From a virus (taxonomy: Duplodnaviria; Caudoviricetes): 57,461 nucleotides of DNA. The position numbers and the translations under genes are program-made. The notes beneath the pieces are model-generated. The model worked only from the letters and a program-made list of their open reading frames with translations, did no database searches and was not told the DNA's origin. Where the stretch lies: IMG/VR virus record IMGVR_UViG_3300036987_000087, positions 1-57,461 of that record. One strand, given 5' to 3'. This document shows positions 2,501 to 31,391 of this stretch, one piece after another (position 1 is the stretch's first letter; each line of letters starts with the position of its first letter).

Positions 2501-3193
2501 CTATGCGGCCTCCGGAGATGATTTAGGGGTGACGCCGCCAGAGGCGGCTATCGCGCAGGCGCGCGATGCGTTGAGAATGGTCATGATGCCTCGACCGATA
2601 AGCTCTGCCGCTTGCGGCACGACAGCGTTTCCGCACTGCTTGCGTCGGTCCACCCAATTGGGAAGCCCATCATCCGTTCCCAGTCGTGCGGGTGCAAAAT
2701 CTTGAGACTGTGCAAGCTGTGCCGCCACTTCCCGACCCGGCCCATGCCACCACCGCGACAGCTCCCGTAAGAGCTCGCCGTCGGCGTGGGCAACAAGGAA
2801 GATACGGGCGCGTTCATGGTGCGCTCCCACGTTTGAGGCTCGCACTCGAAACGGCACGCTGGCGTACCCGATGGCGTGCAACTCGCGCCGCAGTTCGGGC
2901 ACCCATCGCCGCCACGTATGGGCGACGTTTTCGATAACAATCCAATCAGGGCATAGGCCAGCCCGCTCCGCTTGCCGGCCAAGCCGATCCGCTTCCCGCT
3001 CACTGACAAGTCTTGACAGGGGAAGCCCGCGCAGAGAACGAATGTCTCCGTGGATGGGGGTGTCGGGCCAGTGTCGCTTGAGGACCGCGCGGCATTGATC
3101 GTCAATTTCGCAGAAGGCGACGGTTCGCATCCCGGATCTCTCGAGGCCGAGGCTAAACCCGCCGATGCCGCTGAATAGATCGACGACATTCAA
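2501..3193 (-). CDS. C5 cytosine methyltransferase alpha-type chain (motifs I-III, VI-VIII, X; no PCQ)
   Basis: DLFSGIGG, FCEID, IHGDI, WIVIENV, HHERARIFLVA, CGNAVVPQ; TTG start with GGAGG SD. Confidence 0.85.
   Translation of the reverse strand: MNVVDLFSGIGGFSLGLERSGMRTVAFCEIDDQCRAVLKRHWPDTPIHGDIRSLRGLPLSRLVSEREADRLGRQAERAGLCPDWIVIENVAHTWRRWVPELRRELHAIGYASVPFRVRASNVGAHHERARIFLVAHADGELLRELSRWWHGPGREVAAQLAQSQDFAPARLGTDDGLPNWVDRRKQCGNAVVPQAAELIGRGIMTILNASRACAIAASGGVTPKSSPEAA
2520..2575 (-). repeat. Double-hairpin element, copy 1
   Basis: Minus strand: CTCAACGC ATCGCGC-GCCT-GCGCGAT A GCCGCC-TCT-GGCGGC GTCACCCCTAAATC. Confidence 0.75.
2581..3189 (-). CDS. C5 cytosine methyltransferase beta-type chain in the +1 overlapping frame (motifs IV/V, TRD-like segment, IX)
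   Basis: VLCAGFPCQDLSVSGKRIGLAGKRSGL, LLPTPTAS, LHPHDWERMMGFPIGWT; ATG immediately after the upstream TGA. Confidence 0.8.
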   Translation of the reverse strand: MSSIYSAASAGLASASRDPGCEPSPSAKLTINAARSSSDTGPTPPSTETFVLCAGFPCQDLSVSGKRIGLAGKRSGLAYALIGLLSKTSPIRGGDGCPNCGASCTPSGTPACRFECEPQTWERTMNAPVSSLLPTPTASSYGSCRGGGMGRVGKWRHSLHSLKILHPHDWERMMGFPIGWTDASSAETLSCRKRQSLSVEAS

Positions 3194-3447
3194 GGGTTCC
3201 CTCCATTATTATCCGCGCGCACCCAGCGAACGCCAAGACAAGTGAACTCGCGAAGGTCTCCGGAAGCGTCGAAAGAAACCGCCCCACCTGGCGATGCCAA
3301 GACGTCGAACCCAGCTCCGTTTAGTTCTTGAAGGAATGCTTCTGTCTGTGATGTGGTCGTAGTCTCAAAATGCCATTTTCCGTGATGCAGGATGTTGGCA
3401 AGAACTATAAACCGGCTTGGTCCTGAAAAAACTTCGGAGATCATCAC
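3190..3447 (-). CDS. Hypothetical protein (AT-richer)
   Basis: Translationally coupled ORF within the operon. Confidence 0.6.
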   Translation of the reverse strand: MMISEVFSGPSRFIVLANILHHGKWHFETTTTSQTEAFLQELNGAGFDVLASPGGAVSFDASGDLREFTCLGVRWVRADNNGGNP

Positions 3448-3653
3448 CGCACCTCAACCTGGCTGTCAGGGAACTCGCGCATAAGGATGGTGACGGCCCG
3501 CAGTAAATCCGGGTTCCTATCGATAAACCCCATCGTCACCACGGCTTCCTTGGCGTTCTCGATGTCTCTCGGAGAAGGTTGCTCATCTAGTAGAGCGCAG
3601 CTTATTAGGGACTCTACCGCTTGCCTTTGCTCAATTAGAGATGGCTTGGTCAT
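3444..3653 (-). CDS. Hypothetical protein
   Basis: Coupled overlaps at both ends. Confidence 0.65.
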   Translation of the reverse strand: MTKPSLIEQRQAVESLISCALLDEQPSPRDIENAKEAVVTMGFIDRNPDLLRAVTILMREFPDSQVEVR

Positions 3654-4246
3654 GATGACTCACCAGTGGTAGGGCTATCGGTAGATTCAGAAGATTGGGG
3701 TGACGCCGCTCCGCGGCTATCGGCAGCCGCCGATGCGTTGAGTGCGTTCATGAACTCGCGCCGCGCACGATTGGGCGACCAGTATTGCAGCGTGACGCCA
3801 AGTGGCTTCGTGGTTGTGCTCCATGCTACTGGCGGCCGGGACATGTTCTGTGCGGCTTCATCGCTCAATATTGCCGTGTCCGCCGCCTTCACTTCATCTG
3901 GCATCGCGGATGGCAGACCAAACTTGCAGCAAACCGCCAGCATGATCTTATCCTCCGCCTCTCTGTAGCCCCTTAGAAACGGCTTAATCGGGCGTGGCAC
4001 GTCAACTAGGTACGCCTCACTGGCGTCGTGGAGCAGCGCCCATAGCCGGTGTTCCGGGGCGACTTGCCGCGAGAGCAACACGCTGTGCTCTGCCACGCTA
4101 TAGAAGCGGAGGCAGTGGCCGCCGAACCGACATAGCATCGACAGGGCGTGCGCTATGTCGTCCGCAAACACTTCTTCTGGGCGCGGGTCGATTGGCCAAA
4201 ACTGCCGGCCCATAGCGGTCTGTATCCAATCGCCACGGTGCATCAC
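3650..4246 (-). CDS. HD-domain phosphohydrolase (YfdR-like 5'-deoxynucleotidase)
   Basis: DIAHALSMLCRFGGH, YSVAEHS, ALLHDASEAYLVDVPRPIK, VKAAD. Confidence 0.9.
   Translation of the reverse strand: MMHRGDWIQTAMGRQFWPIDPRPEEVFADDIAHALSMLCRFGGHCLRFYSVAEHSVLLSRQVAPEHRLWALLHDASEAYLVDVPRPIKPFLRGYREAEDKIMLAVCCKFGLPSAMPDEVKAADTAILSDEAAQNMSRPPVAWSTTTKPLGVTLQYWSPNRARREFMNALNASAAADSRGAASPQSSESTDSPTTGESS
3693..3742 (-). repeat. Double-hairpin element, copy 2
   Basis: Minus strand: CTCAACGC ATCGGC-GGCT-GCCGAT A GCCGC-GGA-GCGGC GTCACCCCAATC; stems differ from copy 1 but still pair. Confidence 0.75.
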
Positions 4247-5407: not shown

Positions 5408-5743
5408 TCACTCCGCTGCTTCAACTTCAGCATCACCATCGGTGCTGCGAAGGAACAGAGCGTATGGCCCCTCATCGGTGTCGTAGACGCCTCCGAGTAT
5501 CCAACCCATTGGTGGCTCAGGTCGCCACTTCGTCAGGACGTTCTCTCCAGCCTCATAGAGCTTCATCAGGTCCGGGTCGAGCAGCGCACAGACCAGGCAG
5601 TGGAACCCGTTCTCGTTTGCCACACCGGATAGATCAGCCTCGGCTTCCGCGTAGTGGAACATCGCAGCCATGAGACCGCCATCGTCGTAGTCGACGAGTG
5701 TCTCTGGTGCCGGCATGTCTTCTGGTTTGATGATGGTGGTCAT
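5408..5743 (-). CDS. Hypothetical protein
   Basis: Coupled ORF with WRPEPPMGWILGGVYDTDEGPYALF. Confidence 0.7.
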   Translation of the reverse strand: MTTIIKPEDMPAPETLVDYDDGGLMAAMFHYAEAEADLSGVANENGFHCLVCALLDPDLMKLYEAGENVLTKWRPEPPMGWILGGVYDTDEGPYALFLRSTDGDAEVEAAE

Positions 5744-6318
5744 GCTGCCCTCTGTTGTGCTTCGCGCGCCTTGCGCTCGTGGTATGCGTTGATGAAATGC
5801 TGAACCTCGATGCCGGTGATGTGCTCGATCAGCGCGAACACGTCGCTGCGGATCGGCTCGAATTCGAGTTCGTCGAGCACGTCATGGGAGATTGACTTCG
5901 AGACGTAGAGGCACAGCGCGGGCTCGCCTTCGATGCGGCCTTCGCGAAGGAACGGATGCTCGCCCTTGGCCCGGAGCTTTTCCATCTGATGGCTGACAGA
6001 TGCGACGGTCATTGCGCTCAGCTTGGCGTTGCTGGAGAGCGGGTAATTGTCGGCCGTGCACCATCCGGCTCGGCAAAGTAAGTAGGCACGAAGTTTCTCC
6101 GTCTCGCCCGGAAGCGGATGTGGATCTGTGTTGTGCGGCCAGTGCTGAAGGGCATCCGATATAACCGCGAAAAAAAGATCGTGGGCCTTGCTGATCCTGG
6201 GAACCGATACGCGCGCCTTCAGCGGCTGACGCTCCGGCATCTTGGCCATAATCTCTTCCGCTTCGGCGTTCGCCGGCACGAGAGAACGGCCAACTCTTGT
6301 GAGGACCATGTCAGGCAT
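5740..6318 (-). CDS. NinB/DUF1367-like recombination accessory protein
   Basis: LVPA...PRISKAHDLFFAVI...KSISHDVLDELEF pattern; early recombination region. Confidence 0.55.
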   Translation of the reverse strand: MPDMVLTRVGRSLVPANAEAEEIMAKMPERQPLKARVSVPRISKAHDLFFAVISDALQHWPHNTDPHPLPGETEKLRAYLLCRAGWCTADNYPLSSNAKLSAMTVASVSHQMEKLRAKGEHPFLREGRIEGEPALCLYVSKSISHDVLDELEFEPIRSDVFALIEHITGIEVQHFINAYHERKAREAQQRAA

Positions 6319-6468
6319 CCTGCCCTCCCTCTTTCTTCCCCTGCTGAGCAACCTGCACAGGCTTAGGAGGGACAGCAGCACTTGCTCCGGCAGCACCGGC
6401 CACGGCTACGGTTTGCCCGCGTATGAGCTTCCCAGCCGCCTTGCGGATGATGTTGGTGATGGAGGGCA

Positions 6469-29195: not shown

Positions 29196-29769
29196 GGCAA
29201 CCTGCTCAATCGAGGGCTGCGATAAAACGGCAAGCCGAAAAGGCTGGTGCGTTGCGCACTACACGCGTTGGCGCCGGCACGGCGAGCCGACGGCGGGCGG
29301 GAAGTCGCCTTCCCCTGCGGGGACGCTGGCAGCCTGGATAGCGCAGCACGCCTCGTATGCGGGCAATGAGTGTCTCGACTGGCCATTCGCCAAGACCGAA
29401 AACGGTCGAGGACAGGTAGAGATCGATGGTCGCTGTCATACGGCGGCGAGGATCATGTGTGTCGCGGCTCACGGCGAACCCCCTACCCACAGACACCAAG
29501 CCGCGCACTCCTGCGGCAACGGGTGCGGCGGCTGTGTAAACCCTCGACATCTTTACTGGGCAACCCCAGCCGAGAACGAGGCGGACAAGGCTGAGCACGG
29601 AACGCATCTCTGCGGGGAGCGCGTTGCGACGGCGCGACTGACCGTTGCTGATGTTCATCTGATCCGGAAGGGCAATCAGTCCGTCGAGGTGATGGCTGAA
29701 GTTCTCGGCGTGACGACACAAAACATTAAGCTCGTCCAGCAACGCAAGTCCTGGGCATGGGTGCCGTAG
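29188..29769 (+). CDS. HNH homing endonuclease between terS and terL
   Basis: CSIEGC...HYTRWRRHG; AAHSCGNG...CVNPRHLYWATPAEN. Confidence 0.88.
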   Translation: MLEATCSIEGCDKTASRKGWCVAHYTRWRRHGEPTAGGKSPSPAGTLAAWIAQHASYAGNECLDWPFAKTENGRGQVEIDGRCHTAARIMCVAAHGEPPTHRHQAAHSCGNGCGGCVNPRHLYWATPAENEADKAEHGTHLCGERVATARLTVADVHLIRKGNQSVEVMAEVLGVTTQNIKLVQQRKSWAWVP

Positions 29770-31391
29770 CGGCGTGGCCTCCGGACTATGTTGCCGTCTA
29801 CATGGAACGGCAACAGCGCCTGATGGCCCTTCGCCAGAACGTCAATGGAGGGCGCGAGTTCTACCGAACGCGGCCCGCTGAGTTCATAGAGCACTGGGTT
29901 TCGACTTACGACCCGCGCGCGGCCGGCAGCGATCTACCGACGCACGTCCCGTTCATCCTCTTCAGGCGGCAAAAGGAGATGGTGCAGTTCCTGCTCGCCT
30001 GTCTCGATGGCGAGGGTAGCGGGCTGATTGAGAAATGCCGGGACGTTGGCGCCACGTGGGTCTGCTGCGCATTCTCAGTGTGGCTGTGGCTATTCTGGCC
30101 TGGCGTCGCGGTCGGATGGGGCAGCCGCAAGGAGATACTCGTCGACAAGCTCGGCGACCCGGATAGCATCTTTCAGAAGATGCGCATGATCATCCAGGGA
30201 CTGCCCCGCGAGTTTTGGCCGGCCGGGTTCAGCCCGAAGGACCACATGGGCTACATGAAGATCGTCAATCCGGAGACGGGCGCGACGATCACAGGCGAGG
30301 CTGGAGACAACATCGGCCGCGGCGGACGCAAGCGCATCTACTTCAAGGACGAGAGCGCGCACTATGAGCGGCCTGAATTGATCGAGGCCGCGCTCGGCGA
30401 CAACACCCGCGTTCAGATCGACATCTCCTCCGTCAACGGCATCGGCAACGTATTCTATCGCCGGCGCGAGAGCGGCAAGGATTGGGTGCCCGGCCAAGAG
30501 GTGTCTAAGCGCGTCGCCAACGTGTTCGTGATGGACTGGCGCGACCACCCGGCGAAGAACCAGGAGTGGTTCGACGGCCGGCGTCAGAAAGCGGTCGACG
30601 AAGGTCTGCTGCATCTGTTCGCTCAGGAGGTCGAGCGCAACTACGCTGCGTCGGTCGAGGGTGTGATCATCCCAGCCGAATGGGTCAAGGCAGCGATCGA
30701 CGCGCACGTAAAGCTCGGCTTCACCGACGACGGCCTTTGGGTGGCCGCCCTCGATGTGGCCGACGGCGGCATGGATTCCAATGCGCTGCTGATGCGCAAA
30801 GGCGTGGTGCTCAAGAGCGCTGAGAAGTGGGGCGAGGTCGACACCGGCAAGACGACACGGCGGGCCGTCGCGGCCTGCGAGGGCCACAAGCACATCGAGA
30901 TGCAATACGACTGCATCGGTGTCGGTGCGGGCGTCAAGGCAGAGGCGAACCGGCTCAACGAGGATCCCGAGACGCAGTCAAAGGTTCAGCACATCCGCTT
31001 TGTGCCATGGAATGCAGGCGCTACCGTTCTCGATCCGGACGAGCACATTATCCCTGACGATCAGAACACGCCGCTGAACAAAGACTTCTTCGGCAACTTC
31101 AAGGCTCAGGCATGGTGGGCTGTGCGGCGGCGGTTTGAAAAGACCTATCGCGCCATCCACGAGGACATTGCCTATCCGGCTGACGAGATGATCAGTCTGC
31201 CGTCCGATTTGCCGCTGTTGCGCGAGCTTGAGAAAGAATTGAGCCAGCCGACCCGCGATAGGGACGGACGAATGCGCCTCATCGTCGACAAGACACCTGA
31301 GGGCACGCGCTCCCCCAATCTCGCAGACGCGCTGGTGATGCTTTACTTCCCGGCTCCGTGTGGGCCGCTGCCGCTAGAACTCTGGGTCTGA
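29757..31391 (+). CDS. terL: Terminase large subunit
   Basis: EKCRDVGATW, GRGGR, FKDESA, LDVADGG, SPNLADAL. Confidence 0.92.
   Translation: MGAVAAWPPDYVAVYMERQQRLMALRQNVNGGREFYRTRPAEFIEHWVSTYDPRAAGSDLPTHVPFILFRRQKEMVQFLLACLDGEGSGLIEKCRDVGATWVCCAFSVWLWLFWPGVAVGWGSRKEILVDKLGDPDSIFQKMRMIIQGLPREFWPAGFSPKDHMGYMKIVNPETGATITGEAGDNIGRGGRKRIYFKDESAHYERPELIEAALGDNTRVQIDISSVNGIGNVFYRRRESGKDWVPGQEVSKRVANVFVMDWRDHPAKNQEWFDGRRQKAVDEGLLHLFAQEVERNYAASVEGVIIPAEWVKAAIDAHVKLGFTDDGLWVAALDVADGGMDSNALLMRKGVVLKSAEKWGEVDTGKTTRRAVAACEGHKHIEMQYDCIGVGAGVKAEANRLNEDPETQSKVQHIRFVPWNAGATVLDPDEHIIPDDQNTPLNKDFFGNFKAQAWWAVRRRFEKTYRAIHEDIAYPADEMISLPSDLPLLRELEKELSQPTRDRDGRMRLIVDKTPEGTRSPNLADALVMLYFPAPCGPLPLELWV

Follow-up and report, generated by a model that had tools for sequence, protein, structure and literature searches.

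What sort of enzyme is encoded by a cytosine-5 (C5) DNA methyltransferase gene whose catalytic cysteine is missing from the reading frame that carries the other catalytic motifs, and found instead in the same DNA as read one nucleotide over? That question is raised by positions 2501..3193 (minus strand) of IMG/VR virus record IMGVR_UViG_3300036987_000087, a stretch of 57,461 nucleotides (nt) and 62% G+C which in its entirety is here called the window, and to the whole of which all position numbers refer. The answer favored here, which we consider fairly probable, is that two fully overlapping open reading frames (ORFs) would together specify a two-chain C5 DNA methyltransferase, that is, one having its catalytic cysteine on the second chain.

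Two reading frames and their motifs

The longer ORF, frame A, encodes 230 amino acids (aa) from a TTG start (2501..3193, minus strand, as is everything described at this locus), and its predicted product is referred to as chain A. It holds motif I (DLFSGIGG, the FxGxG of S-adenosylmethionine, or AdoMet, binding; 3158-3181), motif VI (ENV; 2924-2932), motif VIII (HHERARIF, including RxR; 2798-2821), and motif X (GNAV, i.e., GNxV; 2621-2632). Residues E88, N89, R128, R130, G188, and N189 of frame A are invariant in homologue alignments. In order, chain A consists of motifs I-III, an unconstrained linker, motifs VI-VIII, a second unconstrained linker, and motif X. It is without motif IV and most of motif V, and nowhere in its 230 aa is there a PC motif; PCQ is found in frame B only, hence not with motif I.

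Frame B is shifted by +1 nt relative to frame A and encodes 202 aa from an ATG start (2581..3189). It lies wholly inside the frame A ORF, so that chain B would be a second chain in another frame of the first gene; B-like ORFs have been called elsewhere as well. Here are found the catalytic block FVLCAGFPCQDLSVSGKRIGLAGKRSGL.. (2935-3042, with PCQ at 3013-3021), a segment resembling a target recognition domain (TRD), LLPTPTASS.. (2746-2796), and motif IX (ERMMGFPIGWT; 2647-2679), with both TRD and motif IX sitting between motifs VIII and X and in frame B only. Chain B thus reads as an unconstrained leader, the beta4 strand with its PCQ loop, and a short motif V helix; next come a cysteine cluster, the TRD, and motif IX. 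Along the gene the motif blocks alternate A, B, A, B, A, and all ten motifs appear in conventional order when the selected segments are taken in turn.

Profile comparisons point the same way. Pfam PF00145 matches frame A (E 2.1e-19, a match that includes A residues 1-55) and also frame B (E 1.3e-08), there placing B residues 51-90 on profile positions 64-103. Against the PDB, a frame A profile aligns 3g7u and M.HhaI with a gap precisely at their PCQ block, and a frame B profile aligns the M.HhaI PCQ block (within residues 42-103) and its motif IX (273-291). An ESM Atlas search returned only viral clusters without names (best score 0.91). A preliminary description of this DNA had assigned motifs I-III, VI, VIII, and X to a frame A lacking a PC motif, had assigned PCQ block, PTP-containing TRD-like segment, and motif IX to frame B, and had called both frames open. 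Both ORFs were re-found on the minus strand; coordinates and PF00145 agree with the first of these assignments and coordinates, Pfam, and the M.HhaI alignment with the second. As an observation, the description holds in all particulars.

It is in how selection acts upon the two frames that their division of labor is best seen. Seven DNA copies were compared, these being the window, L090 (=L251), L091, L170 (=L250), L171, L252, and the partial L253, using Nei-Gojobori ratios of nonsynonymous to synonymous differences (pN/pS) as summed over all pairs. Motifs I-III (3056..3190) are selected in frame A only (pN/pS of 0.40 in A, 1.37 in B), and the following PCQ block (2948..3049) in frame B only (1.43 in A, 0.41 in B); read in frame A, the latter stretch, RGLPLSRL..., is an unconstrained linker. 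The TRD (LLPTPTASSYGSCRGGG) plus motif IX (2660..2791) again are selected in frame B only (1.21 in A, 0.26 in B), with this stretch too being a linker in A, and motif X (2576..2653) again in frame A only (0.54 in A, 1.04 in B). Within the motif-bearing frame of these single-frame segments, pN/pS is 0.26-0.54. (The one ‘stop’ scored, for L091 within the PCQ block, is an artefact of phase due to a gap in the alignment.) The codon alignment displays the same alternation: variation peaks at the third codon position of A in motifs I-III, around ENV, and in motifs VIII and X, and at A's first position (which is B's third) in the PCQ block and in TRD-IX, and switches in the most variable position coincide with the boundaries between pN/pS segments.

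Between the PCQ block and the TRD, where frame A carries motifs VI-VIII (2798..2938), both frames are constrained at once. There the pN/pS values are 0.59 (A) and 0.78 (B), constraint extends to each of the three codon positions, and synonymous change is low in both frames (pS of 0.40 in A and 0.34 in B). Frame A keeps WRRWVPELRR..GY..RVRA, with its third positions frozen, and frame B keeps GCPxCGAxC..PxCxFxC. That is, the cysteine cluster of frame B (CPxCGAxC..C..C, residues 97-116, at 2842-2901) shares its bases with A's WRRWVPELRR..RVRA. The cysteines C97, C100, C104, C112, and C116 are invariant in all seven copies, and the cluster probably binds metal, as judged from this pattern. The junctions VAHAD/LPTPT and DIR/TFV likewise are conserved in both readings. 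Given that both frames are constrained over motifs VI-VIII, the same bases therefore would be translated twice, which in turn favors two polypeptides over one frameshifted chain.

As proposed, AdoMet binding by motifs I-III would fall to chain A, as would motifs VI (ENV) and VIII (RxR) of the catalytic domain plus helix X, with I-III and X making up the AdoMet pocket. From chain B would come beta4 and the loop carrying the PCQ catalytic cysteine, along with the short motif V helix, the cysteine cluster, the TRD, and motif IX. The unconstrained linkers of each chain would then coincide with those stretches of DNA that encode a functional segment of the other, and the active site would be completed in trans, with B's beta4-PCQ filling the gap between A's beta1 and beta5.

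Spread, correctness and origin of the layout

Is this arrangement peculiar to one sequence? A protein search with frame A scored 8000 candidates, 6840 of them with E ≤ 0.001, and the best 120 were examined. Many of these 120 are full-length matches, ~205-217 aa, with 45-85% identity to frame A, and in the homologues of window type the canonical FPCQ is replaced by LPLS, LPVS, FSLP, and similar. An alignment was made of 86 of the first 94 matches, with P0054, P0067, P0076, P0083, P0086, P0088, P0090, and P0093 left out for low coverage. At the PCQ site, 80 of these 86 frame A proteins have [FLIV][SP][LMV][SP], these being the sole frame A readings that are compatible with FPCQ in the +1 frame, i.e., the signature of synonymous change in an FPCQ; two of the other six have FPCQ in frame A itself. 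The heptamer around the site takes 52 different forms in the A proteins, and frame A therefore is not conserved there while the +1 reading is.

Sorted by simple motif criteria, the best 120 homologues consist of 79 of window type, 25 ‘canonical’, 8 of what is here called ORF2 type (see the sister clade, below), and 8 others. Here the term canonical describes those relatives which have PCQ in the same frame as motif I. The 8 others are seven of window type with odd or cut N-termini plus one truncated protein, P0054. The latter (188 aa) matches frame A as far as motif VIII, beyond which its sequence is unrelated, and is the only clearly truncated window-type copy among the best 120. With the 8 others dropped, an IQ-TREE tree of the 112 classified rows places the 79 window-type clusters on one side of a branch with support of 100/100, and the ORF2 type on a branch with support of 100/98; the alignment used includes off-frame stretches, which are themselves clade markers. 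Judging from this tree, the window layout has a single origin, and its clade is old and diverse. The preliminary description had raised the case of all close homologues having PCQ in frame A, which is not what is seen given 79 of 120 of window type.

Other searches add to this picture. PCQ in the +1 frame is invariant in 7/7 DNA copies. A protein search with frame B gave 2274 matches at E ≤ 0.001, eight of them at E ≤ 1e-30, and among 18 sequences inspected, five (P0121, P0122, P0123, P0125, and P0133) are called B-type ORFs with PCQ, cysteine cluster, TRD, and motif IX. Scans of genome and metagenome contigs yielded two loci of the subfamily, a generic motif I pattern having swamped the output. 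Against a cultured-phage collection, frame B had no match at E 1e-8, and the sole match of the region's DNA was to 88 bases of a Microcystis phage.

Nor did the locus arise by an assembly slip. Run X1, which may be the source, has a 56,917-nt contig that is identical over the locus. Assembly error is dismissed because contigs from another, independent study (X2 and X3) match without gaps, covering 2664-2860, 2936-3115, 2774-2994, and 3015-3165 with 0-1 other letters, and thereby taking in the PCQ block plus both flanks; the doubt that the preliminary description had left as to assembly is met by these contigs. That description had offered, as its alternative, decay by two compensating deletions private to this copy. 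In one respect this was correct, in that two deletions, frame-changing relative to canonical relatives, did make the layout (below); alternative frames, furthermore, often are open at 62% GC. The deletions nevertheless are not private, instead tracing to an old ancestor: the layout is that of a 79-cluster clade of one origin, with relatives from many sources, as well as of every one of the DNA copies, selection switches between frames along the gene, the motif-bearing segments display the low pN/pS values given above, and just one of the 120 best homologues looks truncated. A decaying pseudogene, or else an artefact of assembly or sequencing, is, consequently, hardly credible.

What is the norm from which the window clade departs? 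Among relatives taken from viral contigs as well as from genomes and metagenomes, motif I shares its frame with PCQ, ENV, and GNAV, and PTP and the motif IX G[FY]P are in the +1 frame. With 219 non-redundant loci parsed and 29 others unparsed, that +1 frame contains motif IX in 200, and in 172 of the 219 the motif precedes GNAV by exactly 35 nt. Under a stricter map of four motifs, which 139 loci passed, 135 show the frames (0,0,+1,0) and four (+1,0,+1,0), with no other pattern present. A beta ORF, i.e., one in the +1 frame, of 150-230 codons and ending ~35 nt before GNAV, is seen in 336 non-redundant relatives among L001-L413, with examples at L041:266-751, L010:1667-2128, L044:1685-2170, and L335:1168-1662.

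Of 166 loci, 151 keep the +1 frame free of stops from a point just ahead of PCQ as far as the TRD, versus 29.1 expected with synonymous shuffling of alpha. Between the last stop and PCQ there is an ATG in the +1 frame of 280/336 canonical loci versus 21/336 for the +2 frame as control, and such ATGs have a motif resembling the Shine-Dalgarno sequence (an SD-like motif) 184 times in the +1 frame versus 3 times in the +2 frame of these 336 loci. In low-GC members the +1 ORF opens with a stop plus ATG, often following an AGGAG-like motif in alpha's DVRxL codons. Family-wide, the beta ATG falls within the codons for alpha's motif III. In the canonical groups, as based on 11 low-GC loci along with the 4 of 11 high-GC loci that parsed, selection is in alpha for motifs I-VIII plus X, and in beta for TRD-IX, with alpha's conserved DG[LVI]PxRVD being the off-frame reading of MGFPxGWT. 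Canonical +1 products match PHROG 1008, ‘DNA methyltransferase’, at E 1.5e-31 to 1e-9 and match no Pfam family, and the beta ORF of L041 is matched by 76 cultured-phage records. Most public annotations of the family give alpha only. With Paenibacillus phage Lily (NC_028841.1), gp63 is annotated as ‘g62 internal gene’ inside of a cytosine methyltransferase gene. As an aside, at this locus (L414, NC_028841.1 37368-37799), an N6-adenine methyltransferase gene, gp61, is directly upstream and overlaps the start of the gp62/gp63 pair. TRD plus motif IX in the +1 frame thus is, going by these loci, the norm for the family, with the window clade special only in the move of PCQ; of this norm the preliminary description had made no mention.

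A sister clade presents a third layout. In the four clusters P0127, P0128, P0130, and P0135, motifs I-III form an in-frame fusion with beta's N-terminal part, cysteine cluster, TRD, and motif IX. The proteins P0083, P0090, P0093, P0095, P0097, P0105, P0106, and P0108 start with MR[DEN]R and have PCQ, ENV, VIII, and X, along with no motif I. On IMG/VR contig L334 the two occur as overlapping ORFs, with ORF1 (nt 1201-1845) carrying motifs I-III, the beta N-terminal part, TRD, and motif IX, and ORF2 (nt 1281-1973, in the -1 frame) carrying PCQ, ENV, VIII, and X. ORF2 in this clade starts inside motif II, and AdoMet and catalytic motifs are on different ORFs. As read from these genes, the sister-clade enzyme is necessarily two polypeptides unless recoding is invoked.

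How PCQ came to be in the other frame can be read from spacing. From the motif III Asp to the Cys of CxGFPCQ is 13 nt in the window versus 36-48 nt in P0039, P0075, P0096, and P0099, and from that Cys to the Trp of WIVIEN is 89 nt in the window versus 117 nt in all four of these canonical proteins. These differences therefore indicate two deletions, of which the first took out 23-35 nt (2 mod 3 in every case) and the other 28 nt, with sizes coming from the codon counts of the four proteins. DNA of the nearest canonical sister group (P0039, P0075, P0096-P0102) was not found in viral contigs. B residues 82-188 are homologous to the beta of L335, the closest canonical type (49% identity in a 170-column alignment), with four of the five cysteine-cluster positions present also in L335 beta, and L335 beta has nothing corresponding to B's PCQ block. 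The two old deletions, one on each side of PCQ, together put it into the beta frame, removed the ancestral beta start, and shortened the motif V helix. The window form is probably derived from an M.EcoHK31I-like alpha/beta design by way of these deletions.

Two chains, one chain or a mixture

How might two frames of one stretch of DNA both be translated? In the window, TTGAATG (3187-3193) holds both starts, and a GGAGG Shine-Dalgarno sequence common to both (3200..3204) is located 6 nt before A's TTG and 10 nt before B's ATG, with coordinates agreeing with what had been described. Start pairs 4 nt apart are seen in four of the seven copies, as TTGAATG twice, GTGAATG, and ATGGGTG. The window, L253, and L090 have an SD-like motif 5-14 nt upstream of the start pair, and L170 has AGGAGG upstream of its own. 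A frame B ATG adjoins A's start in the window, L253, L090, and L171 (start region ATGACATG), with GTG instead in L170. Candidates for the frame B start in L091 and L252 are TTG or GTG only. Predicted RNA folding of the start region is ordinary (z of -0.09).

The heterodimer that the preliminary description had proposed is, as to its having two chains, supported by the dual constraint, the dual-coded junctions, the lack of slippery sites (see below), the canonical +1 ORF having a start of its own, and the two-ORF sister clade. Beyond that point we infer, from sequence, that both chains would be made, that A would bind B, and that DNA would be methylated. A number of points weigh against the proposal. 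The frame B start varies among the seven copies, i.e., it is not conserved, and the first ~45 residues of frame B are unconstrained by pN/pS. Openness of the frames is less telling than it may seem: within the subfamily, B over motifs VI-VIII is open in 7/7 copies versus 3.7 expected and A over TRD-IX in 6/6 versus 2.1 expected, tests that have little power at 62% GC, with A's openness moreover being partly a matter of ascertainment, the relatives having been found with a frame A query. Similarly, in the wider family, alpha is open over TRD-IX in 166/166 loci versus 35.3 expected, a 166/166 that is by construction of the parse. The motif V helix has been shortened by 28 nt. Lastly, we know of no solved precedent for an interleaved, two-chain Rossmann-like fold with beta4 in trans and with unconstrained linkers, in A, of 27 and 46 residues.

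A mixed model may also be considered. Here A is made full-length, and translation gets to the functional part of B either through a +1 shift from the start of A or through internal initiation just before PCQ, so that the second chain would be either motifs I-III plus B or PCQ to IX only, in place of the full 202-aa ORF. Consistent with this are the unconstrained leader of B, the leader of L252, which contains a frame B stop within the motif I overlap and so forces a later start, and the in-frame fusion of motifs I-III to beta in the sister clade. So too is P0123, a called B-type ORF of 144 aa that has MSPTLVMCAGFPCQ at its N-terminus, 8 residues before FPCQ, and which hints that chain B of some members may start just upstream of beta4 rather than beside A's start. 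In the window, however, frame B has no ATG, GTG, or TTG between -26 and PCQ, the A-to-B junction is without a slippery site, and the 4-nt start pairs are found in most of the copies. As an account of this locus we view the mixed model as quite unlikely.

From a different perspective, the alternating blocks might be joined into a single chain, that is, a methyltransferase of ~205 aa produced via four programmed frameshifts (+1, -1, +1, -1) or by transcriptional slippage. In its favor, the selected segments in order provide all ten motifs conventionally, and the monomer is the usual state of C5 methyltransferases, at least as put in the portion of PMC3404938 consulted. Frameshifting on this scale is nonetheless very improbable. 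In none of the seven copies do the B-to-A junctions show an X XXY YYZ heptamer or a conserved homopolymer. One ribosome pass, in addition, cannot use both readings of the overlapping junctions or of the doubly constrained stretch over motifs VI-VIII. Frames are open far beyond what such a chain would need, as with the +1 frame in 151/166 loci, and beta in canonical relatives comes with an ATG of its own and in many cases an SD-like motif. The inefficiencies of four successive shifts, furthermore, would multiply.

Were both chains made and conserved, their complex might still not be an active C5 DNA methyltransferase, and instead be, e.g., a DNA-binding or regulatory derivative, or act on another substrate. 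The shortening of the motif V helix and of the beta3-beta4 connection (by 28 nt and 23-35 nt, respectively), along with the unprecedented chain topology, speak for this possibility. Against it, FxGxGG, PCQ, ENV, RxR, and GNAV are under purifying selection in whichever frame they occur, PCQ is invariant among the DNA copies, and the clade is old and diverse. We see an inactive complex as unlikely, if worth bearing in mind.

The preferred reading, two chains forming an active enzyme, can also be extended to the family as a whole, which may be described as ‘frame-shuffled’. Under this broader proposal, the structural modules would be distributed over two completely overlapping ORFs in at least three ways, and the layouts {I-VIII, X / TRD-IX}, {I-III, VI-VIII, X / IV, TRD-IX}, and {I-III, TRD-IX / IV-VIII, X} would all be active heterodimers; in the window clade, the catalytic strand would be inserted in trans into the beta-sheet of the other chain, ~45 codons would be truly dual-coding, and the cysteine cluster would bind metal. 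We regard this extension as evenly balanced between being right and being wrong.

Neighboring genes, significance and known systems

Around the locus are found an integrase gene (490-1755, minus), a gene like those for deoxyribonucleoside 5' monophosphate phosphatase (3650-4246, minus; PHROG 318, E 4e-64), a NinB/Orf-like recombination mediator gene (5740-6396, minus), these three being neighbors in the early region, and a terminase gene (29757-31391). Integrase, phosphatase-like gene, and terminase together make this look like a temperate phage. A 150-aa ORF (2048-2500, minus) has its ATG directly after the frame A stop, and shows a weak match to PHROG 96, HNH endonuclease (E 4e-4), with a CxxC..HH-like pattern. 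No restriction endonuclease was seen beside the methyltransferase among the neighboring ORFs tested, and the gene therefore looks like that of an orphan phage methyltransferase.

Why would this matter? If A plus B is active, then it would be the first natural C5 methyltransferase with its catalytic cysteine apart from AdoMet motif, ENV, and RxR, and also the first with chains that are interleaved rather than split once. A Rossmann-like catalytic domain would have been rebuilt from the products of two overlapping frames following simple, frame-changing deletions, and the result would be a natural scaffold for the engineering of split methyltransferases, which so far has been based on M.EcoHK31I or artificial fragments. 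More practically, thousands of short phage and prophage ‘DNA cytosine methyltransferase’ annotations describe the alpha frame alone, with the specificity-determining part in a usually unannotated ORF, thereby affecting predictions of methylomes and of restriction-modification. The stretch in which motifs VI-VIII coincide with the cysteine cluster offers, for a bacterial virus, an instance of long dual coding that is clean and open to testing. The system thus should be of interest to the fields of restriction-modification, of overlapping genes, and of split-enzyme engineering.

How, then, does the window compare with systems already known? M.EcoHK31I is reportedly the alpha/beta C5 methyltransferase of E. 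coli HK31, described by Lee, Kam and Shaw in 1995. The window is like M.EcoHK31I in having a second chain inside of the first gene, in another frame, and carrying motif IX. As given in those parts of PMC2836561 and PMC3404938 that treat it, the beta of M.EcoHK31I is in another frame of alpha and holds motif IX, in agreement with the overlapping-frame beta that the preliminary description had mentioned; both chains are needed, and the N-terminal part of beta matters for association. Alpha, in the same accounts, is described as having motifs I-VIII, motif X, and the TRD (PMC2836561, PMC3404938). By that description the window is set apart in that selection on PCQ and on the whole VIII-IX interval, i.e., the TRD, acts in the second frame, and chain A is without the catalytic cysteine, leaving the alpha catalytic domain incomplete. 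In the canonical relatives, too, the VIII-IX interval is selected in the beta frame, versus a TRD on alpha with M.EcoHK31I as described.

M.AquI is, per the relevant portion of PMC3404938, divided between a larger subunit with motifs I-VIII plus part of the variable region and a smaller one with the rest plus IX-X, which fits what had been said of it earlier, that is, split in two with the catalytic cysteine on the motif I chain. The window is similar in having C5 methyltransferase motifs over two polypeptides, here predicted ones. With M.AquI, however, there is no interleaving and the catalytic cysteine stays with motif I, whereas blocks in the window alternate A-B-A-B-A. The monomeric M.HhaI and M.HaeIII have the same set and order of motifs as the window has once its frames are merged, but are single chains of ~330 aa. 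Artificial N- and C-terminal fragments can complement, indicating that the fold tolerates chain breaks, with none of those covered in that portion of PMC3404938 having beta4-PCQ alone in a second chain.

In our literature search, M.EcoHK31I and M.AquI were the only two-chain C5 methyltransferases found, and nothing was found on a catalytic cysteine on an overlapping second chain, on an I-III/beta fusion, on a dual-coded cysteine cluster, or on a phage-wide extent of the overlap; the available part of PMC3711429 makes no mention of such a methyltransferase cluster. Of the same family as the window gene are Lily gp62/gp63 and the genes of PHROG 1008, with which it shares a +1 ORF that has PTPTA.. 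and ..LMGFPxGWT and ends ~35 nt before GNAV, and an alpha that extends to motif X. Those canonical genes keep PCQ in the alpha frame, just downstream of a beta ATG that often comes with an SD-like motif. The window, by contrast, has lost the canonical beta start region and reads PCQ in the beta frame, with B opening beside A's start. The principle of overlapping alpha and beta is therefore a known one, from M.EcoHK31I and from an internal gene in at least one phage record, and it is the cysteine on the second chain which, as predicted here, would be the new element.

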